Positions 2,938 to 33,649 of a stretch of DNA of 48,100 nt are shown in pieces. Source of the DNA: a virus. Lineage: Duplodnaviria; Caudoviricetes. Made by a program: the position numbers and the translations under genes. The stretch covers positions 1 through 48,100 of IMG/VR virus record IMGVR_UViG_3300027627_000419. One strand, given 5' to 3'. Every line of letters begins with the position of its first letter. The first letter of the stretch is position 1. Below the pieces are notes generated by a model. That model did not search any database, was not told the DNA's origin, and saw nothing but the letters and a program-made list of their open reading frames with translations.

Positions 2938-3611
2938 AGCTTTTGTAATCTCTCTATAAGCTCAAAAATCTTAACATTAGGAATATTAGCTACAGATTCA
3001 AATCCTTCTGATTTGGGAAAATTCTCTTTCACTAATTTATTTTTAATCTGTTCAAAAGTAATCTTCTTGTCTTTCATTACCGATTCAAGAAGAGCCTTCG
3101 GATTTAATGTATTTTCAATTACTTCTTCCTGTGGGGTCTTGCCTGCACCGAGCTCCTCTTGAGAGACGATGTTAATTTTTAGGAAATTTCTAACACATCT
3201 AACAAAAGATCTATTCTCTGCAATCGGTCCAAGATAATGTCTGGCGAAGCTCTGCGTATTATTCGGTGACGCATCTCCAATCGCAGAGAAGCCAACGCCA
3301 TGTCCTTCCGTCTCGAAGTTGGGAGTCCATTGGATTTTACACGCCGCTACGACGTAATCTGGAGAAGGAGAAGTAACCGTGTACGAAACATCCGTGTATC
3401 CTCTAATCTGCGCTAGCTCTTTGATTCCACCAAGAAGGATTAGAAGGTCTTTATCTTCCAGCTTTGAAACGTCCGTCTCTTTTGTTTTTTGCTTGTTCGA
3501 AACGAGGTACTCCGTCTTAACCATCTTCCGCCAGTTGATTGAACCGTCTTCGTTGAAAACGTATTCTACACCCTCAATGAGTCCGTCGCTGTTTCTTTTG
3601 AGCTTTTTCAT
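2934..3611 (-). CDS. Putative single-strand annealing protein (Rad52/Sak-like fold)
   Basis: 'GDASP.N...AENRSFVRCVRNFLKINIVSQEEL' resembles the AETRA..RA.R....I...S.EE motif. Start moved to the ATG at 3611 because a promoter lies just upstream. Confidence 0.5.
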   Translation of the reverse strand: MKKLKRNSDGLIEGVEYVFNEDGSINWRKMVKTEYLVSNKQKTKETDVSKLEDKDLLILLGGIKELAQIRGYTDVSYTVTSPSPDYVVAACKIQWTPNFETEGHGVGFSAIGDASPNNTQSFARHYLGPIAENRSFVRCVRNFLKINIVSQEELGAGKTPQEEVIENTLNPKALLESVMKDKKITFEQIKNKLVKENFPKSEGFESVANIPNVKIFELIERLQKL

Positions 3612-3647
3612 ATAGATTAATATGCTCTCGCGCGCGCATGAGGTCAA
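3612..3647 (-). promoter_or_regulatory. Sigma70-type promoter, leaderless geometry
   Basis: TTGACC-17-CATATT-7-ATG(3611); the -35 contains the TGA stop of the upstream gene. Confidence 0.7.
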
Positions 3648-4765
3648 TCTTTTTTCTTTAAAATCCAGAAGTTCTCGATCTCGTTCCAGAAAGAATCGTT
3701 ATTAATAATGGGATTTATTTGAGTTTTAGACGATGTAGGCGCATTCTGTCTCCAAGACTCTTCGCTGGGATACACTTTAGACTCACTCAAAATAAATCTA
3801 TTACTTAAAAAATAAAGCTTACTAAAATCTAATCCATCAAACCTTTTGTTATCTTTTATGTTTATCTTATCTAGGGTCTTAATAAGGCTAAAGTCCATAT
3901 AATTAATCTTCTTCTTTTGAAGTTCTGCATCTGGCAGATTAGAATAAAGGATTAAATTTAAACCAATTTTTTGTACTTCATCGCAAAAAGAGGGGTCGTC
4001 ATTTTCTTCTATAAAGTAGACGAGATTAGGAATTTTACTTTTAAAGTTCTTAAGAATATCTAAATTTATTCTTTTGTTTGTTACTATGGACACACTGGAC
4101 GCAGATAATTGGTGAACCAAGTTGTGCTCATTAAAATGCAAATCCATTCGCACACCGACGCCACTCAAGCCTTCTCCTTTGAAGATCTGATTCGGAACGC
4201 CCTCTATAAACTCTTGTCCATCGCGATTTTTGTTACCGACGTAAACCGTTTCGAATCCAATTTTTAAATCGATATTAAAAAAGCTTAAAATAGCAGCCGC
4301 AATTTCTTCCGGTTTCGCTCCGTCATCATCTTTTATGATTTTTAAACGTTTTAACTTGGAATAACTGGGTTTATAAAGCTTGAAGAGCTTTTCGCTACAA
4401 ACGAAGACGCAGGGCTTATCGAGGGAAGAAGCTATTTGAAAAGACAGCGGGTTTGTTGTGATTAAGATCTTAGCCCTCTTTATCATGTAGGACAATTGAT
4501 TTGCAAAAAGAGCTCCGCTGAGTTGACGAGTAGAAGCTATTGCTTTTTCGTGTGTGCTGCAATTGTTGTAAACTGGGAGGTTTAATTTATTTAAATAATT
4601 ATTTACGACTCCTATTACTAACTGCCAATTTCTATATTTCCCACTCGGACCTACGGTATCCAAAAGGATAAAGTTGTCATGCTCCATCGGAAAAAATATA
4701 TCATAAATATAAGGCTTATCTATATCTAGATTACTTAATTGAGAAAAGAAAGAAAGCTTATTCAT
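3644..4765 (-). CDS. GT9/heptosyltransferase-like C-terminal domain plus an unknown domain
   Basis: 'KYRNWQLVI...QLSYMIKRAKILITTNPLSFQIASSLDKPCVFV' resembles the GT9 'K.W...LAALI..A.L.I..DS...HLA.AL.KP.V' motif. Confidence 0.5.
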   Translation of the reverse strand: MNKLSFFSQLSNLDIDKPYIYDIFFPMEHDNFILLDTVGPSGKYRNWQLVIGVVNNYLNKLNLPVYNNCSTHEKAIASTRQLSGALFANQLSYMIKRAKILITTNPLSFQIASSLDKPCVFVCSEKLFKLYKPSYSKLKRLKIIKDDDGAKPEEIAAAILSFFNIDLKIGFETVYVGNKNRDGQEFIEGVPNQIFKGEGLSGVGVRMDLHFNEHNLVHQLSASSVSIVTNKRINLDILKNFKSKIPNLVYFIEENDDPSFCDEVQKIGLNLILYSNLPDAELQKKKINYMDFSLIKTLDKINIKDNKRFDGLDFSKLYFLSNRFILSESKVYPSEESWRQNAPTSSKTQINPIINNDSFWNEIENFWILKKKD

Positions 4766-8160: not shown

Positions 8161-10698
8161 TTATGAAGTTTTCTTAATCTCTGATAACTTCGTGTATACT
8201 TTGTGGTCTTGGACGCTTATCAGATCTGCAAAGACGACGTCTTCAAATTTGCGACCTTTAACAATGACTATGTTTTTCTCTTTTGGCAAGCCGTTATTTA
8301 ACGACTCGCATTCCTCCAACTTCTTGGAGAAAATCATTACTTTCGTTGTTCCTGTCTCATCGGAGATCATACATTTTAGGTATTTAGTCTTCTTCTCTTT
8401 TGATGTTCCGGAGAAAGACTCGTCAACCACGCCAACGAAAATCATTTCGCTTTTTAGCGGAAGGTTGTCTATTTCTCTGACGTTAACAAGATCACCTCTC
8501 TTTGTGGAAAAAATATCCTTAAGCGTTTTGTTGTATGTGTAGCCAAGCAAGCTTTTCTCATAGTACCAATTAGCAAAACTTTCTGACTTCTTATTCTGCT
8601 CGAAGATTTGCTTGTACGGCTCGCTCTTCTTTTTGAGGGTAACCAATCTTGTAGGTTTAACGGACGGTTTCCCCTTCTCGTCTTTCATTGCGACCAAAGC
8701 CCTCAACGTATCAACGAGATCGTGCTCGTATTTCGTTCCTAATGCCATGCAGTGAGTCTTCTCTTTGTCGGTTAAAAGGTTCCACAACTGCGCTTCATAG
8801 ACAACCTTGCTTCTGGACTGTTTAAACCCTTCGAACGCTCCCGCCTGAATGAGCGCACAAAGAATACCTACCCCAAGGCCGGACGAACTAGCCGCTTCAA
8901 ATATCTCAAATTTGGTGGAGTATTCGTTCTTGAAATTGTTCAGCTTCTCTATGGATTTATCAGAAATACCCTTAATAGAAAGAAGACCGAAACGAATATC
9001 GTCTCCCTCGATGGAAAAATCCATGTTTGACTTCATCAAATGAGGAGGAAGGAGTTTGATATTGAAAAGGCTCATCTCTTTATTAATTTTTGAAATTTCA
9101 GAGATAGAGTCTGGTTCGTGCTTCGTCATCTTCAATAGAGACAAATAGAACTGCTTTGGATATTTAAACTTTAGATAAATCGTCGTAGCCGCCAAGGAAG
9201 CGTAACAGACGGAGTGAGACTTATTGAAAGAATAGTTCGCTGAATCCTCAAGAACCTTCCAGAGAACGTCGCCGATTTCCGTACTGAGCTTATTCTCTTT
9301 AATCTTATCGGAGATTTTTTCTTTCCACGCTTTTACTTCTTCTACTTTCTTTTTGCCGACAATGCGGCGCAGAATTTCGGCCTCGTCTAGAGTGAGTCCG
9401 ATTTTATGCGCCATTTGCATCATCTGCTCTTGGTAAAGGCATACTCCTCCGGACTTGCCGAGAATATCGTCAAAGAACGGGTGGATAGAGTTGACTGTCC
9501 CCGTGTTTGAGAACAGAGCGTACTGAGGGACGTAATCCAAAGCCCCTGGGCGCGCGAGCGCGAGAACTGCGCTTAGTTCGTCTAGATTCTTCGGTTTAAC
9601 CTTGTTACAAACTCTGAAGTTGGTATCCGCTTCAATTTGGAATAGTCCGTGCGGAGCCTTAAGCTCTTGAAGTTGCTGATAAATAAATGGGTCGTTTAGC
9701 TCTTTGTCTGTTATGGTCATGTCCAGACTCTTGCAGACGTCGTCAATGACAGAAACCGCTCTCAGCCCTAGAATGTCTAGCTTAACGTTGAAAATCGAAA
9801 CCCAGTTCATATCGTAGGAAGAAACAGAGCCTTCTTTATCTGAGGTTAGCTCGGTTGGGCATGAATCTTGAATCGGGTAATAAGAAACGGAAACCGCAGA
9901 CGGATGAACGCCCTTATTTTTAATAAGTCCCCGAAGCTTGAGTGCAGTGTGATAGACTCTATCGTTTTTGTCGCACCAAGTTCTGAAGGCTTCGACTTCT
10001 GAATACGCTTCTGTTAAGTCCTTAACTTGGCCGTGATGCTTGGGAATCAAAGAAGAAATCTCGTTCATCTCTGTTTCCGCTTTTCCGGCGACAATCTTAC
10101 CGCACTCCTTGATTAGAAGCTTCGAACTTAGAGTGTTGAGCGTTAGAATTTTGGAAGTTTTACCGTCAAACTTTTCTTCTAAATACTCAAGAACTTTATG
10201 CCGATTATAATAGCAGATGTCAAGGTCTACGTCCGCCATCAAAGAGCCATCAAGGTAAGTGATGCCATCAACAACATTCTTCTTTGACCGAATCTTTGAA
10301 ATGAATCGCTCGAAGTAAAGGCCATATTTGATGGGGTCTACCCTCGTAACGCCAACAGAATACAGAATGAGGCTTCCCGCTGCGCTCCCACGGCCAACAC
10401 CCGTTGGAATCTTATTCTCTTTGCAGAAGTTGATAACGTCCCAAACCAACAAAATATAGTCAATAAAGCCTAAGTCTTTTATGGTTGAGAATTCGTGATC
10501 AAATCGCTCTTCGTATTTCTCGTCAAGAAGATTCAAGTCTTTGAGCCCTTTTTGGCATAGAGCTTTAAGAAACTCTTCATTGCTAGCGTCCTCACTAAGT
10601 CCTAGGGCTCTTTTGTACTTATTTGCAACGGTAAACGTTGGGAGCCGAACTCCATGAAGCTTCAAATCTAGGGGTTTAAAATCAGAATCAAAACTCAT
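8161..10698 (-). CDS. dnaE: DNA polymerase III alpha-type (family C) catalytic subunit lacking the PHP domain
   Basis: GRGSAAGSL, FERF, DVDLD, HPSAV, KLDILGL, GLFQIE, LARPG, YQEQ, YSFNKSHS, IRFGLLSIKG, C-terminal OB fold. Confidence 0.95.
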   Translation of the reverse strand: MSFDSDFKPLDLKLHGVRLPTFTVANKYKRALGLSEDASNEEFLKALCQKGLKDLNLLDEKYEERFDHEFSTIKDLGFIDYILLVWDVINFCKENKIPTGVGRGSAAGSLILYSVGVTRVDPIKYGLYFERFISKIRSKKNVVDGITYLDGSLMADVDLDICYYNRHKVLEYLEEKFDGKTSKILTLNTLSSKLLIKECGKIVAGKAETEMNEISSLIPKHHGQVKDLTEAYSEVEAFRTWCDKNDRVYHTALKLRGLIKNKGVHPSAVSVSYYPIQDSCPTELTSDKEGSVSSYDMNWVSIFNVKLDILGLRAVSVIDDVCKSLDMTITDKELNDPFIYQQLQELKAPHGLFQIEADTNFRVCNKVKPKNLDELSAVLALARPGALDYVPQYALFSNTGTVNSIHPFFDDILGKSGGVCLYQEQMMQMAHKIGLTLDEAEILRRIVGKKKVEEVKAWKEKISDKIKENKLSTEIGDVLWKVLEDSANYSFNKSHSVCYASLAATTIYLKFKYPKQFYLSLLKMTKHEPDSISEISKINKEMSLFNIKLLPPHLMKSNMDFSIEGDDIRFGLLSIKGISDKSIEKLNNFKNEYSTKFEIFEAASSSGLGVGILCALIQAGAFEGFKQSRSKVVYEAQLWNLLTDKEKTHCMALGTKYEHDLVDTLRALVAMKDEKGKPSVKPTRLVTLKKKSEPYKQIFEQNKKSESFANWYYEKSLLGYTYNKTLKDIFSTKRGDLVNVREIDNLPLKSEMIFVGVVDESFSGTSKEKKTKYLKCMISDETGTTKVMIFSKKLEECESLNNGLPKEKNIVIVKGRKFEDVVFADLISVQDHKVYTKLSEIKKTS

Positions 10699-10702
10699 AT
10701 TG

Positions 10703-11341
10703 TTAAATTTCTACAGACCATTTAAGCTTATTCCAGATTTTGAGGTTTAATTCTAAGTCCGTGACTGCATCGTGCAAATTTTCGTAATTATGTTCTATTC
10801 CGTATTCCTTACCCAACACCTCCAAGCGAGTCTTTACTCCCTTTTTGATTGTATGGAGTGTCTTGTACTGGTATTCCAAAAGATTATCCTTCTGCTTGTA
10901 TGGCATCGAGAGCTTCAATCCTTTTGCAAGGCAGTTCGTATCAATAATCTTATTTACTAAATGCCTATAGCTCAGTTTGTGTTTTTTGTAAAGCTCCCTA
11001 ATGAAGAATATATCAAAGCCCAAGATGTTATGTCCAACTATGAAGTCGCAATTCTCTAACCAATCTCTGATTGTCGGAAAAACGTCTTCTTCGGCAACAC
11101 CTATTCTCTTCATCTTCAGCGGGTCGTATCTGGTTATTCTCGCTGCGTCGTCGCTAATCTTTAAGTTGGTCTCCCATTTAATGTGGAAGTCTTTCGTCGC
11201 TGTGATTCTTTCTCCGCAGACCTTTAGCATACCAACCTGCCACGGGAGATTGTGGCAGAAGTTAAGGCAAAGGTTAAACGTTTCAAAGTCAATGAACGTG
11301 TACGTCTTTGTCTTGTCAAATCTCAGAAGATGCTCGTCCAT
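10703..11341 (-). CDS. DEDDh 3'-5' exonuclease (DnaQ/epsilon-like)
   Basis: ExoI DFET, ExoII GHNILGFD, IDT, ExoIII HDAVTD. Confidence 0.9.
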   Translation of the reverse strand: MDEHLLRFDKTKTYTFIDFETFNLCLNFCHNLPWQVGMLKVCGERITATKDFHIKWETNLKISDDAARITRYDPLKMKRIGVAEEDVFPTIRDWLENCDFIVGHNILGFDIFFIRELYKKHKLSYRHLVNKIIDTNCLAKGLKLSMPYKQKDNLLEYQYKTLHTIKKGVKTRLEVLGKEYGIEHNYENLHDAVTDLELNLKIWNKLKWSVEI

Positions 11342-11343
11342 AA

Positions 11344-12111
11344 TTAAGCTCCGGCCTCCGCTTCCACCCAGCTTTCAAAACTGAACTCGTTGCTACACAT
11401 GTGTTCTTGCTGTGGTTTATCTAGCGTGGAGCGATTATTAATACATTTAAAAGTCAAATAATTAATAAAATCATTTCTCTTCTTGTAGAATATACTCTTA
11501 ACCTTATGAACAGGACAGCATCCATCTAGGATTTTCTCTAATTTAGCTTTAATTAAATCATCGAAGGGTAGGTCGTTATCTTCAACGAAGTACTCTGGAA
11601 CTGTGAAATTGAAATCCGTAATGCACTTGTATGCCAAAAGCACATTATTAAAAATGTAAGAATCGTAGAATGGAATACAGAGCTTTAAGTCTTCATCCGA
11701 CCAGAGCTTTTTTAGATTCACGTAATCAATTCTTGGCTCATAATAGAACCCAACACGAGCGGCCATAGTGTAAATTTTAATTAATCGACGATACCCTTCT
11801 TCATTCTTGCAGAAGATGACTATTTTATTATTTGATTTTAGGGACTCTTCGTTCTTTTCCTTAATATTCCCGCAGACCGTGAGACGAATTCCATAAATCA
11901 AATTCAAGCCGCTAGCCTTCGCATTCAAATGAGCCTGAAGAAAGCCGCTCATTGTATCTTCGACTAGGTAGAAAGTCTTGAGGTCCGCCTCTTTGCACAT
12001 CTTAATGATTGAGTCTGGGCCGCTTTCTTCGCTATCGCTAGCTTTGTCAAGAGTCAGAATAGACCGACCGATGCTATAATGACTCTTAAATAGTGGTAAA
12101 ACCTTATACAT
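11344..12111 (-). CDS. Stand-alone PHP domain of Pol III alpha
   Basis: SHYS, 'LIYGIRL', 'FCKNEEGYRRLIKI...GFYYEPRID' as in the DnaE N-terminus. Confidence 0.85.
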   Translation of the reverse strand: MYKVLPLFKSHYSIGRSILTLDKASDSEESGPDSIIKMCKEADLKTFYLVEDTMSGFLQAHLNAKASGLNLIYGIRLTVCGNIKEKNEESLKSNNKIVIFCKNEEGYRRLIKIYTMAARVGFYYEPRIDYVNLKKLWSDEDLKLCIPFYDSYIFNNVLLAYKCITDFNFTVPEYFVEDNDLPFDDLIKAKLEKILDGCCPVHKVKSIFYKKRNDFINYLTFKCINNRSTLDKPQQEHMCSNEFSFESWVEAEAGA

Positions 12112-15550: not shown

Positions 15551-15587
15551 ATCCCCTAACTCTAAGGGGAACTTCGCTTTATGTCAA
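15551..15587 (-). promoter_or_regulatory. Sigma70-type promoter; -10 bracketed by an inverted repeat
   Basis: TTGACA-17-TAGAGT-8-ATG(15550); TCCCCT/AGGGGA flank the -10; the -35 contains the upstream TGA stop. Confidence 0.75.
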
Positions 15588-15867: not shown

Positions 15868-16283
15868 TAAATTGAAATACCGAACATAGAAAGAATAAAT
15901 TCTTTAGTTAATAATTTAACTTCATTCTGTTCTATTACTATTAGTCTAAATCCATTTTTAATTAACCATTCTGATTTGGCGTAGTCTCTTTTTATTGATT
16001 TTAAATAATTCGCTCTTGAGTTATCATGGAAGAACTTATTAAACTCTGAGTGCTGATTGCCATTAACTTCTATGGCTATCTTTCTTGTGGCATTCAGAAA
16101 ATCAACCTTCATCAAAGAGCCATAAACGGGGAACTCTTCGTAGATGATCTGAGACGACCAGTAAGGCTTGAGGAACTGCTTGGTTGCGAATTGGATATTT
16201 GACCGAGACTTCTTATTCCAGTCAATCAAATACTTTGAAACGTTTTTCTTTACAAGCTTTCCGTTTATGTTAAATAACCTCAT
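15867..16283 (-). CDS. Vsr/DUF559-like endonuclease
   Basis: 'EEFPV...VDF...KIAIEVNGNQH...RD..K..W...NGFRLIVI'. Confidence 0.75.
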   Translation of the reverse strand: MRLFNINGKLVKKNVSKYLIDWNKKSRSNIQFATKQFLKPYWSSQIIYEEFPVYGSLMKVDFLNATRKIAIEVNGNQHSEFNKFFHDNSRANYLKSIKRDYAKSEWLIKNGFRLIVIEQNEVKLLTKEFILSMFGISI

Positions 16284-16326
16284 CTCTTCTGATAAAACCC
16301 TCGCCGCCAGTAACGAGGATTTTCAT
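16270..16326 (-). pseudogene. 18-codon relic of an NAD-dependent NDP-sugar epimerase/dehydratase
   Basis: Translates MKILVTGGEGFIRRDEVI*; its ATG overlaps the recA stop (TAATG). Confidence 0.6.
16291..16323 (-). terminator. Possible terminator-like hairpin after recA
   Basis: AAAAUCCUCG-N10-CGAGGGUUUU; only a short U tract. Confidence 0.35.
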
Positions 16327-17429
16327 TACTTTTTCGATAGAACGTCTTTGAACTTCTTAAATAGGTAAGAGCAGGCGTCTTTATTGTCTTCTAGGTATTT
16401 TCTGAAGTTGTCCAAACCCTGATGCTGCTTCTCTATTTTTAAGTCTTTTTTATTTAATTCTTCGATTAACTCATCGGAGACAGTGACCCAAGCTCCTTTT
16501 TGAGAAATCATCTCGAACATCAAAAGCGTATCTGTTACTTCTTGTTCTACCCAAACGCTTTGACTGTTTGTTCTCCCGTAGCGTATGGGATAACGAACCT
16601 CTTTGTTTGTCTTCTCGTTGGGGGACTTCTTGAAAACGATTTTGCAAAAATGTCCGATAATTTCATCTTTACCGTTAACCTTATTAAGAATCAAGTCGCC
16701 CTTAAATCTTTGCTGAAATTCAAGAATCCAATCGCTATAATGCAGCAGGGCGTTTCCTCCAGAGGCGTTTGTGAGTTTTGGGTCGGTCTTTGCATACGGA
16801 TTAATCGTAACGGTGCTTCTCACCTGACTAATCATAATACAAATATGCCCTTTACTGGAAAGACCGAGGGCCATCTTCCGTAAGAAGTCAGAGGAAAGCA
16901 AAGAACCGCCCGCAACTTTATTAGCCTCTTCAAACGGCTTTTCTATGTCGTTTCTTGGAACTAGTGCGTCCATGCTGTCAATGATGAACAAGTACCGCAC
17001 ATCGTTTGGGTTATTTTTTACTAAATCTCTTATCAGGGAGATGACAGACTCATACACGTTTGACGGATAGATTGTCATTCTGTCTTCGGAGACATTAAGT
17101 CCGGAACGCTCCAGTATCTCTTTCGACAGTCTTCCCTCCGACTTGATATAAACTACGAAAGAATTCTTTACTGTTTCTTGGAAGTTCTTCGCGAAGGCTA
17201 ATGCGCAACTTGTCTTGCCGCCCTCCGCTAGTCCGCAAAAACGCATTATCCCGGGCCTAATTCCTCCGCCCATTTCAATGTCAAGAAGAAGACTTCCGCT
17301 TGACACTCTGTATGTCTCCGCCTGATCGAACGCGTAATGGTCTTCCTTGTTGTTCTTGAGGTAAGCCTTAATCTGCTCCGCAGGAGAATTCCCAGAGAAC
17401 TCCACTATTTCGTCTTTTTTCTTTGCCAT
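16326..17429 (-). CDS. recA: RecA/UvsX-like recombinase
   Basis: SSGSLLLD, GLAEGGKT, IIDS, ISQVR, 'SGGNALLHYSD', KGAW. Confidence 0.9.
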   Translation of the reverse strand: MAKKKDEIVEFSGNSPAEQIKAYLKNNKEDHYAFDQAETYRVSSGSLLLDIEMGGGIRPGIMRFCGLAEGGKTSCALAFAKNFQETVKNSFVVYIKSEGRLSKEILERSGLNVSEDRMTIYPSNVYESVISLIRDLVKNNPNDVRYLFIIDSMDALVPRNDIEKPFEEANKVAGGSLLSSDFLRKMALGLSSKGHICIMISQVRSTVTINPYAKTDPKLTNASGGNALLHYSDWILEFQQRFKGDLILNKVNGKDEIIGHFCKIVFKKSPNEKTNKEVRYPIRYGRTNSQSVWVEQEVTDTLLMFEMISQKGAWVTVSDELIEELNKKDLKIEKQHQGLDNFRKYLEDNKDACSYLFKKFKDVLSKK

Positions 17430-28965: not shown

Positions 28966-29718
28966 GAGACTTTCGAAGAATTTTTTTACTTTTTCGTTGT
29001 GAACTTGTCCGACTCTTGCTTCTTTGTTTAGTAAAATTGGATCAAATCCGCTGCCAAAGTCAAGGATAGTTATTTCTTTATTTAAAGAAAGGAGATCGCT
29101 AGTTAAGACTTTACTGCTTAATCCAAAAGAAAAGAGAAAAATAGCGTCCTTCTGAATACTCTTTACGGCGTTTTCTTTTATTTCGTTGTATTTAGAAAAG
29201 GAATTAGTCTCTGGAGTTATAATGATTTCGTCAACATTTAAAAGGTTTTTAATTCCATTTAATTTGTTTGGACCGATGAATATCTTTTTTCTTTTTGAGT
29301 TTTTTATGGATTCCAAGAGGGTTCTGAGGTTGTGATTGAGAGAATCATGAGTCAATAGAAGCGCGTAATAAAGATAATTAGGAATTAAGCCTTCACAATT
29401 AAGGTAATCATCTCTAAGTTGAGAAAATTCATCTCCCGCCCGACCCGGCCAATCACCAATAAACACATCAGCTCTTCTTGCCATTTTTTTTAGGGCGACC
29501 TTAAGAAATTCTCCTAGTTCTTTGGAAAGCGGGTGTCCGTCGCGGTTTTCTTCGCCATCACGAAAGCCAAAGATACACTCAAGTTCTTCGTCTCCGAATT
29601 TAGTAAAAGAAAAATTTTCGTTATTTTTAATCTTATAATTAAAATAATTCAAATAAAGATCCCTCTTTAAGAGATTTCTTTTGTTTCTATCGCTATCGTT
29701 GATTAATTGCTTATCCAT
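28957..29718 (-). CDS. GT-D fold (DUF1792-like) glycosyltransferase
   Basis: 'FSFTKFGDEE', 'FGLSSKVL', 'LDFGSGFD'; start taken at ATG 29718. Confidence 0.6.
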   Translation of the reverse strand: MDKQLINDSDRNKRNLLKRDLYLNYFNYKIKNNENFSFTKFGDEELECIFGFRDGEENRDGHPLSKELGEFLKVALKKMARRADVFIGDWPGRAGDEFSQLRDDYLNCEGLIPNYLYYALLLTHDSLNHNLRTLLESIKNSKRKKIFIGPNKLNGIKNLLNVDEIIITPETNSFSKYNEIKENAVKSIQKDAIFLFSFGLSSKVLTSDLLSLNKEITILDFGSGFDPILLNKEARVGQVHNEKVKKFFESLLT

Positions 29719-30314
29719 TTTATGAAATCGTCGATGATTGGGGAGATGAATTTGTTTACTTTTTCTTCGTTTCCATTGGAGTGTTCCCATTCCACCGCGT
29801 AATCAGCCTTCTTGAGTAGCTTGGGGTTCTGGGTTGCCTCTTCTGTGTTTGGCGCGGTCGTGTATATCTTTTTTCCGTCGACCATTTTAAACTTTGAAAT
29901 ATGAACAAGAACTCCATTCATCTCCTCCTTAAGCCAATGAACTTCATCTTTTTTAAACGAATCATATCTTATGTCCGTGACACAATGGAGAGAATGGGGG
30001 CAGCCATCAAGAAAATCAGAGAAGACGGAGGCTTTAATTTTGTCATTTAATTTATCCACCCAATATCTTCCATTTGTCTGATTTCTCCGTATTAATCCGT
30101 GAGAAACCAAAGCGGGCCTAAGCGTCTCCTTATCCTCTCTAGAACAAGTCAAGATATCAATACCATACAGATTCAAAAACGGAACACGAACCTCGTTCTT
30201 GAGTTCGTCTGCCAACGCGAACCTCTTGGCGTTAATCTTGGAAGATAAAGAATTAAAGAATAAGTCCTTACCGGAACCAGCCACACCGGATATGCCTATG
30301 ATTTTTGTTTTCAT
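29703..30314 (-). CDS. Deoxynucleoside monophosphate kinase (T4 gp1-like)
   Basis: IIGISGVAGSGKD, FALADELK, 'KE.LR', YWV, VTDIRY..E; start taken at ATG 30314. Confidence 0.8.
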   Translation of the reverse strand: MKTKIIGISGVAGSGKDLFFNSLSSKINAKRFALADELKNEVRVPFLNLYGIDILTCSREDKETLRPALVSHGLIRRNQTNGRYWVDKLNDKIKASVFSDFLDGCPHSLHCVTDIRYDSFKKDEVHWLKEEMNGVLVHISKFKMVDGKKIYTTAPNTEEATQNPKLLKKADYAVEWEHSNGNEEKVNKFISPIIDDFIKWISN

Positions 30315-30717
30315 ATAAAAGTTTCCCCGCAAGACCACTAGTCTTTTTAAAATTTTTCCCTGAGCGGCGGCTATAAGCAATAGCAGTCAACTCTATCTCT
30401 TGGGATAGTTAATTAATCAATCAATAGATACCCGCTTCAGTCCTTCGCATTGGCCTTATTTAGCCTAGCTGACGACTATCCATTGCTATGTTCCGTGTTC
30501 TTTGTTCTGCGGTAGGACTTGTTTTTTATGACCACTAGTCTTTTCCCTTGAGGGGGTATAAGTTTCTAGCATCCCTTTGGAACCAACCTATGAAGCCGCT
30601 TTTTCCCGAAATGGCTCCAGACTTTTTAGGTCTGTTTGGTTGATGTCTTTTTACGGGCCTGTTGTCTCTTGAGTGTTTTAGCCTAATGCTAGGCAAGCTG
30701 TTACCGCTTCAAAGAAC
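30315..30717 (-). ncRNA. Candidate ~350-400 nt structured non-coding RNA (alternatively a replication origin)
   Basis: Largest ORF-free gap; promoter upstream; many complementary segments including 5'/3' closure; internal duplication. No family recognised. Confidence 0.5.
30333..30570. repeat. 15-bp exact direct repeat GACCACTAGTCTTTT (30333 and 30530) within a longer degenerate duplication
   Basis: Both copies continue ...CCC(T)TGAG..GG.TATAAG...TAGCA; offset 197 bp. Confidence 0.85.
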
Positions 30718-30723
30718 TTTCTT

Positions 30724-30752
30724 ATTTTTGCCACCGCTTTTCAAAAAGTCAA
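30724..30752 (-). promoter_or_regulatory. Sigma70-type promoter facing the non-coding region
   Basis: TTGACT-17-AAAAAT; the -35 contains the upstream TGA stop; no ATG follows. Confidence 0.55.
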
Positions 30753-31153
30753 TCTTTTTTATCTTCCATGAGAGAGTGAATAATAACGATTAAATTCTTA
30801 ATGTCTTTTTCTCGGAGGTCTGCAAAGTCACAGAAATCAGAAGGAACATCTGCTTTTTCGCAAGCGATATTAATAATCATGGCTACTTCTTTAGCTGTTG
30901 AACTAGAAATAGTCACAGTTTGATCCATACTCTCTAGAGGCTTCTCCAAAACGAAAATAGCATCTCCATCGGCGCATCCCTGAGACACTATGTTCATTTT
31001 CTCAAGCTTTCTAAGGCCGCACAGCAGCGCCGCTTTGTCTGCTTCTCTATCTTCAGTGATGAAAACGACGTCTTTGAAATTCTTTTCCAGATAAAAGAAA
31101 TCATTCTTTTGGAACCAATCAATTAATTTTATTGAGGCTTCAATGATAGTCAC
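30749..31153 (-). CDS. Hypothetical protein
   Basis: 134 aa, GTG start; first gene of the leftward block. Confidence 0.7.
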   Translation of the reverse strand: MTIIEASIKLIDWFQKNDFFYLEKNFKDVVFITEDREADKAALLCGLRKLEKMNIVSQGCADGDAIFVLEKPLESMDQTVTISSSTAKEVAMIINIACEKADVPSDFCDFADLREKDIKNLIVIIHSLMEDKKD

Positions 31154-32415: not shown

Positions 32416-32769
32416 ATGAAAAACCTAATCCTGACACTCATTCTTTGTTCTTCCTCTACGTCCGCCTTTGCTGGCGAAGGCGAAAACAACCAAGTTGGCG
32501 GCGGCGAAAAGAAGGAAGGCTACAGCACCACCAAGCCCCTCGGTGTGCCGGTCAAGACGACCGTCGGCACCACCAAGGTAAGCACTCGCGGCAGCGTCAC
32601 CACCGCCGCAGTCACATCGACCGTGCGCCCGACGGCCACCCGGACTGCCTCCGTCTCCCGCGTGAATCTCCGTCGCCCCACGGCGACCGTGACCTCGACC
32701 ACTCCCACCGCCCCCGTCGGTGGCGGTCAGTCACAACCGCCGCCGCCGTCCAACGTCGGTGGCCAGTAA
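32416..32769 (+). CDS. Secreted Thr/Pro/Gly-rich low-complexity protein
   Basis: Signal peptide ending ...SAFA; GC-rich codons. Confidence 0.65.
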   Translation: MKNLILTLILCSSSTSAFAGEGENNQVGGGEKKEGYSTTKPLGVPVKTTVGTTKVSTRGSVTTAAVTSTVRPTATRTASVSRVNLRRPTATVTSTTPTAPVGGGQSQPPPPSNVGGQ

Positions 32770-32790
32770 TCTCATTCGAATCAACCACCT

Positions 32791-33444
32791 GTGAAAATTC
32801 CTCTTTTCTTAGCTGCCCTCGTGCTTGCGCTCGTCGCTCAAGACGCCGCTGCCCAAACCTTGGCTGGCACTATGGCTGCGGGCGCTATCGGGTCCTCTCT
32901 GCAAGGCGTTGGCGGAATGAACTATGGCGTCATCAAAAGCCAAGCGCGCGGCGTGTCCAACGCAAACAATAATTACCAATCCACCCTGAACGGGTTGACG
33001 ACCGACCCGAACAACACAACGACAGCGCAGCCGCAACAGCCGCAGCCGCAACAGCCGCAGCCGCAACAGCCCCCGCAACAGCCCCCGCAACCGACCGGGG
33101 TTGAAGCGGGTACTCAAACGGGTGGAGCAGGAGCTAACACCAACTTGACTAGTAGCAGTACGCGCCCCATCAGCATTTGGGGAGCGACCGGCCTCGCCTC
33201 GCTCAGAGCCAATCCGCGCAACATCATGAGCACGATCGGGAATAAAAGCGCTGGAACGAACCAGTTCAGCTCGAGGCCACGCATATCACTCCGCGTCCAA
33301 ACAATGCGCATCTCCAATCCTCGGACTTCTGCAATCTCCACTCGCGGTGGAGCGACTGGTGGCACCAACCAACTCGGTGGTGCAGGCGGTAGTCAGCAAC
33401 AGCAGGAAGTTTATGACGGCTCCGCAACAGTCCGCAGCAAATGA
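32791..33444 (+). CDS. Secreted Gln/Pro/Thr/Gly-rich low-complexity protein
   Basis: Signal peptide ending ...DAAA; QP repeat; GC-rich codons. Confidence 0.7.
   Translation: MKIPLFLAALVLALVAQDAAAQTLAGTMAAGAIGSSLQGVGGMNYGVIKSQARGVSNANNNYQSTLNGLTTDPNNTTTAQPQQPQPQQPQPQQPPQQPPQPTGVEAGTQTGGAGANTNLTSSSTRPISIWGATGLASLRANPRNIMSTIGNKSAGTNQFSSRPRISLRVQTMRISNPRTSAISTRGGATGGTNQLGGAGGSQQQQEVYDGSATVRSK
33028..33093 (+). repeat. In-frame 15/12-nt tandem repeat encoding QPQQP
   Basis: cagccgcaacagccg units followed by ccgcaacagccc units. Confidence 0.9.
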
Positions 33445-33613
33445 GGCGAAGTCCGCCGCTCCATCGGCAGCGGACGCAAGTGCAGATTCGTCGGCTTCCG
33501 CAAATTCTTCACTGCCCGAGGAAAAGTCAGCCAAGTCGTTGACGCCCGAGGAACAAATGGTGCGTTATGAGGATGAGCTCAAGGAAACGGACTGGGGCCA
33601 TCAGCCGTGTTGA
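33413..33613 (+). CDS. Small acidic protein ending in DWGHQPC
   Basis: 'LTPEEQMVRYEDELKETDWGHQPC'; I recall this C-terminus from Verrucomicrobiota small proteins (unverified); start uncertain. Confidence 0.6.
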   Translation: MTAPQQSAANEAKSAAPSAADASADSSASANSSLPEEKSAKSLTPEEQMVRYEDELKETDWGHQPC

Positions 33614-33619
33614 ATAACT

Positions 33620-33649
33620 CTTCGGCAACCCGACAAAGGATTACCGAAG
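33620..33649 (+). terminator. Imperfect hairpin at the right edge of the GC-rich island
   Basis: CTTCGGcAAcCC-gacaaa-GGaTTaCCGAAG. Confidence 0.35.

Follow-up and report, generated by a model that had tools for sequence, protein, structure and literature searches.

Genomic context of the element

The stretch of DNA analyzed here, hereafter called the window, is a whole virus record of 48.1 kb from a large phage whose relatives reach 140–180 kb; the sequencing runs containing it were from freshwater. Its genes encode a three-part DnaE polymerase, a helicase, a primase, RecA, a ribonucleotide reductase, many glycosyltransferases, two sigma factors, and ClpP. The DnaE-type polymerase is split into three adjacent genes (8161–12111), corresponding to the PHP domain, the exonuclease and the polymerase core, and its best match among cultured phages was less than 28% identical. 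We also observed an island of 60% GC at 32416–33620 in a genome of 41% GC, with three small low-complexity ORFs; contig depth there was 60–280 in DNA and RNA runs, versus mostly less than 30 elsewhere, with indels and back-joints. Among the best 120 homologs of the 289-aa sigma factor (approximately 36–39% identity), all 15 with a taxon name carried names that we take to belong to the Verrucomicrobiota, and one homolog of the kinase described below carried a Bacteroidetes bin label. The phage host is likely a member of the Verrucomicrobiota.

The element under study is located between a gene encoding a conserved 134-aa protein (30749–31153, minus strand) and a dNMP kinase gene (29703–30314, minus strand; phrog_139, E = 2.7e-15). 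As the initial annotation had stated, this interval of 434 bp, which ends at the kinase ATG (30314), is the sole large gap between called genes of the window, the next largest being 170 bp. One ORF of at least 50 aa was found within it, a 53-aa frame starting with TTG, and the kinase could be extended by 22 aa via an in-frame TTG in the gap. The 134-aa protein was modeled with a winged-helix-like structure (AlphaFold pLDDT 93.6); Foldseek matches were weak, of the MarR/Fur/MecI type (E of at least 0.02), and sequence, Atlas and fold searches gave no significant match.

A putative sigma-70-type promoter was identified at 30724–30752 (minus strand), with a −35 box, TTGACT (30752–30747), a 17-nt spacer, and a −10 box, AAAAAT (30729–30724). 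The −35 box overlaps the stop codon of the upstream gene, as at 15587 and 17825, in line with the earlier description of a stop-overlapping promoter resembling those of protein genes. Based on the window sequence alone, the match is weak (9/12), and such sites occur at a frequency near chance (7 versus 4.2 in shuffled sequences). However, a promoter-like pattern was present upstream of 42 out of 48 homologs of the element, versus 256 out of 5236 control windows (5%), and in 35 of these 42 homologs the −10 box was located 5–7 nt ahead of a conserved 5' motif. Because of this conservation, the promoter call appears credible and the element seems to possess a promoter of its own, as previously proposed. 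The element stands at the head of a 27-kb run of same-strand genes; gene direction switches approximately 0.5 kb away, and the replication genes lie downstream.

Distribution and conservation

We searched 160 loci taken around relatives of the kinase, a set that includes duplicates between collections as well as the window's own contig. A long, conserved non-coding element was present in 127 of them and belonged to one of three types: type 1, which is that of the window (n = 50), type 2 (n = 72), or type 3 (n = 5). Among the 33 loci without an element, many were short, and in four the RNA lay at a different position of the contig. A motif scan independent of the kinase yielded 56 loci, 54 of which were confirmed by the profile, giving a total of 104 phage loci for type 1. 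A conserved, covarying element was thus recovered near dNMP kinase genes by the homolog collection that had been suggested.

From 97 full-length copies, four lacking the 5' motif were removed and the rest were reduced to 48 at 97% identity, with a mean identity of 60% and a lowest identity of 48%. Type-1 copies with a differing 5' end, at loci L177, L196, L203, and L215, were excluded from the alignment. The type-1 structured non-coding RNA is predicted to span 30331–30718 in the window (minus strand; 388 nt, both ends being estimates), and the 48 homologs ranged from 360 to 419 nt. When 185,579 prokaryote genomes were scanned with a strict motif pattern, which diverged copies would escape, three matches were obtained, all rejected by the profile. 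In blastn searches against cultured phages, the window gave only 25-nt chance matches, and a second type-1 copy and a type-2 copy gave none.

The element is a conserved gene with an upstream promoter pattern, compensatory pairing and a covarying repeat, and very probably constitutes a new structured RNA family.

Secondary structure

Helices were proposed by eye on the alignments and then counted, so the counts favor the model. Across the 48-sequence alignment, the 58 proposed pairs were standard in 91.4% of cells, versus 79.3% in shuffled alignments and 33–44% when partners were slid; one pair was out of register in this count and helix P1 was omitted on account of its poor alignment (56%). 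Two-sided changes were observed in 40 of the 58 pairs. An independent covariation test, consisting of an APC-corrected G-test against 20 tree-simulated null alignments, identified nine column pairs at E ≤ 0.05, of which seven were Watson–Crick pairs, one was of the GA/AG type, and one was an identity pair joining the repeated strands X and X' described below. The seven Watson–Crick pairs came from P5, P6, P7, and pseudoknot PK1, the last contributing two (E 0.05). No pair from PK2, PK3, or PK4 passed this test individually, and the support for these pseudoknots is provided by compensatory counts. Moreover, G-U cells outnumbered A-C cells in the type-1 alignment (254 versus 48), which agrees with the earlier remark that G-U pairs favor the minus strand.

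The following features are all on the minus strand. The 5' end (30703–30718) holds the near-invariant motif G-UCUUU, which forms the 5' strand of P1, and the 5' strand of P2. The partner of P1 (30504–30497) is poorly aligned; this helix was paired in 56% of cells and formed in the MFE fold. P2 (30707–30703 with 30513–30509) was paired in 97.8% of cells, with two-sided changes in 4 of 5 pairs. The 5' domain (30598–30698) contains PK1 (30698–30695 with 30601–30598; 99.5% paired, 4/4 pairs two-sided, two passing the tree-based null), PK3 (30657–30654 with 30608–30605; 100% paired, 1/4 pairs two-sided), a near-invariant segment (30660–30645), and the hairpin P6 (30634–30618; 100% paired). Three helices also begin there: P4 (30647–30645/30532–30530), P5 (30643–30638/30588–30583), and P7 (30617–30613/30597–30593). 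A single hairpin loop serves both PK1 and PK3. The 3' core (30422–30519) comprises PK4 (30519–30515 with 30443–30439; 95% paired, 3/5 pairs two-sided), P10/P11 (30485–30472 with 30435–30422; 82% paired), a near-invariant AGC (30470–30468), and the hairpin P12. The two domains are connected by the long-range PK2 (30664–30661 with a 3' strand at 30388–30391), paired in 85% of cells, with two-sided changes in 2 of 4 pairs (CG/AU/UA) and an E of 0.95 in the tree-based test. Positions 30659, 30611, and 30603 covaried as G-U-A or A-C-G, possibly forming a base triple beside PK3, or possibly reflecting a clade effect.

The fold drawn in the initial annotation was right for the central helices and one pseudoknot. 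Its pairings CAACC/GGUUG, CAGAC/GUCUG, and GAGCC/GGCUU were conserved with compensatory changes, as were AGUCC/GGACU and CAAUGGAUA/UAUCUAUUG, which cross each other and thus support a pseudoknot. Two helices with better support compete with the CGCA/UGCG extension. The hairpins GCCUA/UAGGC and CUAUC/GAUAG were lineage-specific, and the helix drawn between the 5' and 3' ends showed no conservation, with 32% of its cells paired; its GCGGU pairs instead with 30513–30509. The 5' end had therefore been mis-paired, and three of the four pseudoknots, the repeat and the other two RNA types had been missed.

When the window copy was folded by itself, the minimum free energy (MFE) had a z-score of −1.55 for the minus strand and −0.14 for the plus strand, and z was below −2 in only 1 of 15 homologs. 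The previously proposed comparison with shuffled sequences was thus barely above chance. Since the z-scores are weak, the case for an RNA is made by conservation and covariation, not by MFE.

In one RNA run, an identical metatranscriptome contig covered 30431–30661 at a depth of 46, versus approximately 12 in the upstream flank; a protein gene reached 44 in the same single study. RNA-run contigs covered 29 of the 30 bins of a 20-kb stretch, so the RNA was not singled out. The weak z-scores and these contigs, which rank nothing, would suit a DNA-level element or a chance structure with no functional RNA. We regard this as extremely improbable, given that 40 of the 58 pairs show compensatory changes, and given the strand-specific excess of G-U cells and the conserved promoter. 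Overall, type 1 can be described as a non-coding element, led by a promoter and conserved in large uncultured water phages, whose predicted RNA fold is organized around four pseudoknots.

Comparison with known RNA families

An Rfam scan revealed no family match, and the novelty claimed for the element stands: the minus strand carries a candidate for a new large RNA of phages, conserved and covarying, with a fitting G-U bias. ROOL, GOLLD, OLE, and ARRPOF were not found at gathering score in the window and 14 loci, at E ≤ 10 in the window stretch, or at E ≤ 1 in 12 diverse homologs. Matches to SAM-V (E 3.3; 18 bits versus a cut-off of 41) and SNORD26 (E 2.5) were attributed to chance.

The hallmarks of tmRNA were lacking, as first noted (no hit with ARAGORN, none in Rfam). 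Like tmRNA, type-1 RNA is about 390 nt long, has four pseudoknots and is found in phages; unlike tmRNA, it has neither a tRNA-like domain nor a tag frame, and a separate canonical tmRNA exists in type-1 phage G007 and in two type-2 phages. Canonical tmRNA genes were located at L228 1537–1959, G007 16002–16402, and G003 70910–71327; in G002, the gene was missed by ARAGORN and found by Rfam. The reported absence of RNase P hallmarks was also confirmed, with no Rfam match and a 5' end that pairs with the middle of the RNA, whereas the P4 pseudoknot of RNase P RNA joins its two ends. The invariant columns of type 1 are also unlike what we take to be the RNase P P4 pattern.

Few bacterial or phage RNAs are so large with several covarying pseudoknots, and the known ones are ribozymes or unusual RNA-only assemblies. 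According to the accessible part of PMC12286853, ROOL and GOLLD are phage-borne, several hundred nucleotides long, with multiple pseudoknots and variable peripheral hairpins; they form cages and have no known protein partner or function. Type 1 resembles them in being phage-borne, several hundred nucleotides long and rich in pseudoknots, with variable peripheral hairpins and no known partner. However, type 1 is smaller (360–419 nt versus approximately 600 and more than 800 nt) and has no Rfam match. Moreover, ROOL and GOLLD often lie in tRNA islands, whereas no tRNA was found in the window or in G001, and three were found in G002. Type 1 also differs in its position beside nucleotide-metabolism genes, its co-evolving internal/terminal repeat and its exchange with unrelated RNAs. 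Among smaller RNAs, ARRPOF has four pseudoknots, as does type 1, and forms a 3'-domain-swapped dimer (PMC12990946, accessible part), and EGFOA forms a strand-exchanged dimer (bioRxiv 10.64898/2026.07.01.735769, accessible part). Both are shorter than type 1 (255 nt and plasmid-borne for ARRPOF, less than 200 nt for EGFOA), and the accessible parts of these two sources describe no duplicated strand. In descriptive terms, type 1 falls within a class of ornate large RNAs, with its large size, many covarying helices, several pseudoknots, and stand-alone gene.

Our full-text literature search, which covered few subscription journals, found no description of the type-1 RNA. In the accessible part of a survey of viral RNAs (PMC10690425), no reported motif exceeds 151 nt, and three of its supplements contained no match to our motif; the survey alignments may list fragments.

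The reverse transcriptase domain PF00078 was absent from five out of five related phage records (three at least 90% complete, with G001 the only known type-1 carrier among them), which argues against a retron, a DRT, or a diversity-generating retroelement. Likewise, no nuclease or recombinase gene of the kind accompanying OMEGA or bridge RNAs was found among the neighboring families, which comprised the kinase, a sigma-like protein, a deaminase, a dUTPase, glycosyl- and sulfotransferases, and unannotated proteins.

A strand repeated at the 3' end

An internal purine-rich strand, X (30529–30553, minus strand), is repeated at the 3' end of the RNA as X' (30331–30364, minus strand), in which the first half is typically one base shorter and a short AU-rich insert is present. 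Two acceptor strands may pair with these putative donors: the "arm" (30552–30571, minus strand), which is the 5' side of an internally looped helix and pairs with X while remaining complementary to X', and M2 (30371–30388, minus strand), which can pair with X or X'.

More than a dozen sequence classes of X were observed, and X' matched the class of its own genome. The longest exact word shared by X and X' had a median length of 15 nt within a genome, versus 6 between X classes, and the identity covariation between 30538 and 30341 reached E 0.00 in the tree-based test. At 30568, the most variable pair of the arm, pairing was maintained in 47 out of 48 homologs with X and 44 out of 48 with X', with UA, CG, and UG types in both. 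Arm duplexes were stronger than shuffled controls in 45/48 (X) and 43/48 (X') homologs. M2 duplexes were stronger (means of −9.4 kcal/mol with X and −8.9 kcal/mol with X') and beat shuffled controls in 42/48 and 41/48, respectively. The two arrangements, arm:X plus M2:X' and arm:X' plus M2:X, had similar energies (−14.0 versus −14.3 kcal/mol) and were within 2 kcal of each other in 39 out of 48 homologs, which is partly trivial since X equals X'.

X' tracks X even where X is a freely varying helix strand, and the simplest reason for this would be that X' takes the place of X. Three observations argue against such an exchange: acceptor:donor pairing was not significantly genome-specific (p 0.08–0.38 over 13 X classes; p 0.08 and 0.28 for M2), arm:X' was 3 kcal weaker than arm:X once the AU-rich insert was counted, and the unpaired bases of X were likewise copied in X', which pairing alone does not explain.

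No third copy of X was found in the window or in G001 at up to three mismatches. X was therefore rejected as a phage promoter or a dispersed target, half-site matches being attributed to chance. It was also dropped, by eye, as an anticodon mimic, an SD-like sequence, a CsrA site, or a T-box, since the bases needed vary.

Two other RNAs in the same position

Type 2 was identified in 112 loci (for example, L001 at about 2545–2960 and L143 at about 3560–3950). It is approximately 420 nt long and unrelated in fold, with strongly covarying helices of its own, a pseudoknot, and a terminator-like 3' hairpin, and had no Rfam match. Type 3, identified in nine loci (L075 and L077–L080, at about 3620–3960), is approximately 340 nt long and displays a long-range pairing of 8–10 bp that competes with its 3' hairpin. 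Both types follow the same kind of promoter as type 1. In type 2, an internal purine-rich strand is repeated near the 3' end (own-copy score 10.7 versus 7.2; top rank in 22 out of 45), and, by eye, the same is true of type 3. The first half of X/X' is similar in all three types.

No locus was matched by two profiles, and thus no two types were found at one locus. The 3' core of type 1 was also run as a covariance model, built on an imperfect RNAalifold structure, against 27 sources (approximately seven of them without type 2 or 3); the best E was 1.6, and no inter-type homology was detected. When the RNA types were mapped onto a quick 99-row kinase tree, they required 12 changes, against a minimum of 2 and a mean of 34.6 after shuffling, and 2–3 changes per type were forced at well-supported branches. 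This interleaved pattern indicates that the position has been inherited mostly vertically, with several exchanges. The sigma-like gene initially appeared to track RNA type (5 versus 9 changes), but it was rejected as a partner, as well-supported exchanges occurred in both trees and the gene is absent at the window locus. No neighboring protein tracked RNA type convincingly. Overall, type 1 represents a new family, and the three types probably represent three, within a loose class of ornate phage RNAs and with an unusual duplicated-strand design. The three types differ in fold, stand in for one another, and each carry a second copy of an internal strand at the 3' end, which suggests a common function.

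One such function would be that of a bivalent decoy, in which a protein of the host or the phage, such as RNA polymerase, an RNA chaperone, or a defense nuclease, would be offered two copies of one purine-rich motif by different folds. The similar first half of X/X' in three unrelated RNAs, the copying of unpaired bases, the swapping of types between phages in the manner of arms-race cassettes, and the sigma-like gene in the same operon of many relatives are all consistent with this proposal. It is nevertheless rather unlikely, since X' also tracks the freely varying second half of X, which a protein site would not need, and no neighboring protein tracks RNA type at well-supported branches.

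Neighboring genes

In all 54 motif-found type-1 loci, the next gene was on the same strand, mostly within approximately 70 nt; it encoded the kinase in 38 loci, a sigma-70-like protein in 11, and another protein in 5. A tRNA directly followed the type-1 copy in one of the 14 loci scanned. Type 2 was followed by an opposite-strand gene in 8 out of 38 loci, and in nine type-2 loci the RNA occupied the opposite strand, behind a dUTPase gene and kilobases away from the kinase, while the 134-aa gene remained beside the kinase. Since the next gene varies, a tRNA follows one copy, and type 2 lies in another transcription unit in nine loci, we consider the element to be a stand-alone gene, although the same-strand gene after type 1 in 54 out of 54 loci argues against this reading.

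That same arrangement could also be explained by a cis-acting leader, that is, a riboswitch, attenuator, or antiterminator of the long operon for nucleotide metabolism, glycosylation, and replication, with an X/X' switch as its expression platform. The position of the element at the head of the 27-kb gene run and the terminator-like hairpin at the end of type 2 fit this explanation, but the variable downstream gene, the tRNA in one locus, the type-2 copies followed by an opposite-strand gene (8/38) or located in a different transcription unit (nine loci), and the chance nature of the SAM-V match do not. Moreover, type-1 RNA is far larger than known aptamers. We therefore consider a leader improbable. 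The kinase-specific leader put forward in the initial annotation is disfavored in particular by the 16 out of 54 loci in which the next gene is not the kinase.

The replication primer also suggested there found no support. In such a case, X, whose sequence complements the template strand of X', would guide an R-loop at the identical X' DNA, and the location of the element, approximately 0.5 kb from the switch in gene direction and upstream of replication genes, would be suitable. However, the GC-skew extremes were far from the RNA in two long relatives, the RNA occupies other positions in some phages, and three unrelated folds share the slot, which makes a primer or origin RNA highly unlikely.

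In many relatives, the sigma-70-like gene, of approximately 200 aa, comes after either the kinase or the RNA (family F5; L035 970–1578 and relatives). It has no Pfam match, its profile matches SigA/ECF structures (E 6e-8), and it is missing from the window at this locus.

Possible modes of action

The reading that we tentatively prefer, and consider quite possible, is by analogy that of a stand-alone ornate RNA, a scaffold similar to GOLLD and ROOL, which would swap its duplicated strand between two acceptors and serve as a shape switch or form an oligomer. Among the functions listed in the initial annotation, a scaffold is thus the one favored. The RNA would be transcribed early by the host sigma-70 polymerase, probably in a member of the Verrucomicrobiota. 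X would pair with the arm first; M2 and X', made later, would then allow arm:X plus M2:X' and arm:X' plus M2:X to form at nearly equal energy. More speculatively, a swap between molecules might yield a dimer or a cage used during infection. The repeat of an internal strand at the 3' end of types 2 and 3 argues for strand exchange, as do the swapped dimers and cages of ARRPOF, EGFOA, ROOL, and GOLLD, as far as described in the accessible parts of PMC12990946, bioRxiv 10.64898/2026.07.01.735769, and PMC12286853.

A duplicated strand could also provide substrates for catalysis. In a new ribozyme, the core would cleave or ligate at equivalent X and X' sites docked in turn on one guide, and thereby release, splice, or circularize RNA. 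Two equivalent sites with one strong acceptor are reminiscent of successive substrate docking, invariant unpaired bases are concentrated at pseudoknot junctions, and no terminator-like site is present at the 3' end in the window, so that this end would have to be processed. A resemblance to what we take to be the group I core was also observed, with a five-pair pseudoknot after an A-rich linker and a 3-nt joint to the next helix; PK4 and its A-rich lead-in would presumably correspond to P7 and J8-7. However, the order is reversed in type 1, PK4 is a continuous helix of 5 bp, and the element is not within a gene. The 3' core alignment lacked the P3-P4-P6-P7 core of group I introns and lariat-capping ribozymes with its bulged G-binding site, and no equivalent of P4-P5 was found. 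Rfam gave no ribozyme match at E ≤ 10. In addition, no X-X' joint, forward or backward, was found in the contigs of two RNA runs, which drop rare forms, and one RNA contig ran unspliced across both X and X'. On balance, a ribozyme appears unlikely. It is equally doubtful that a single RNA-catalyzed job is carried out in a clade of large Verrucomicrobiota phages by any of three unrelated, swappable folds of approximately 400 nt, whose core would dock the repeat copies in turn and cleave, ligate, or chain RNA. If this were true, large ribozymes or strand-exchange RNA machines of a new class would have arisen more than once in evolution.

The analysis provides one new family, represented by 48 diverse sequences and a structure model that can be tested, together with two more families in the same slot. 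The duplicated strand offers a handle that ROOL and GOLLD lack, as it can be mutated, swapped between types, and traced in vitro without a cultured host.

Other features of a related phage

In addition to its tmRNA, G002 (L228 9305–10462; L232–L234) was found to encode a tubulin/TubZ-like protein, a signal peptidase, and Hsp20. A block of approximately 40 kb containing sugar-nucleotide and glycosyltransferase genes was also observed in this phage.
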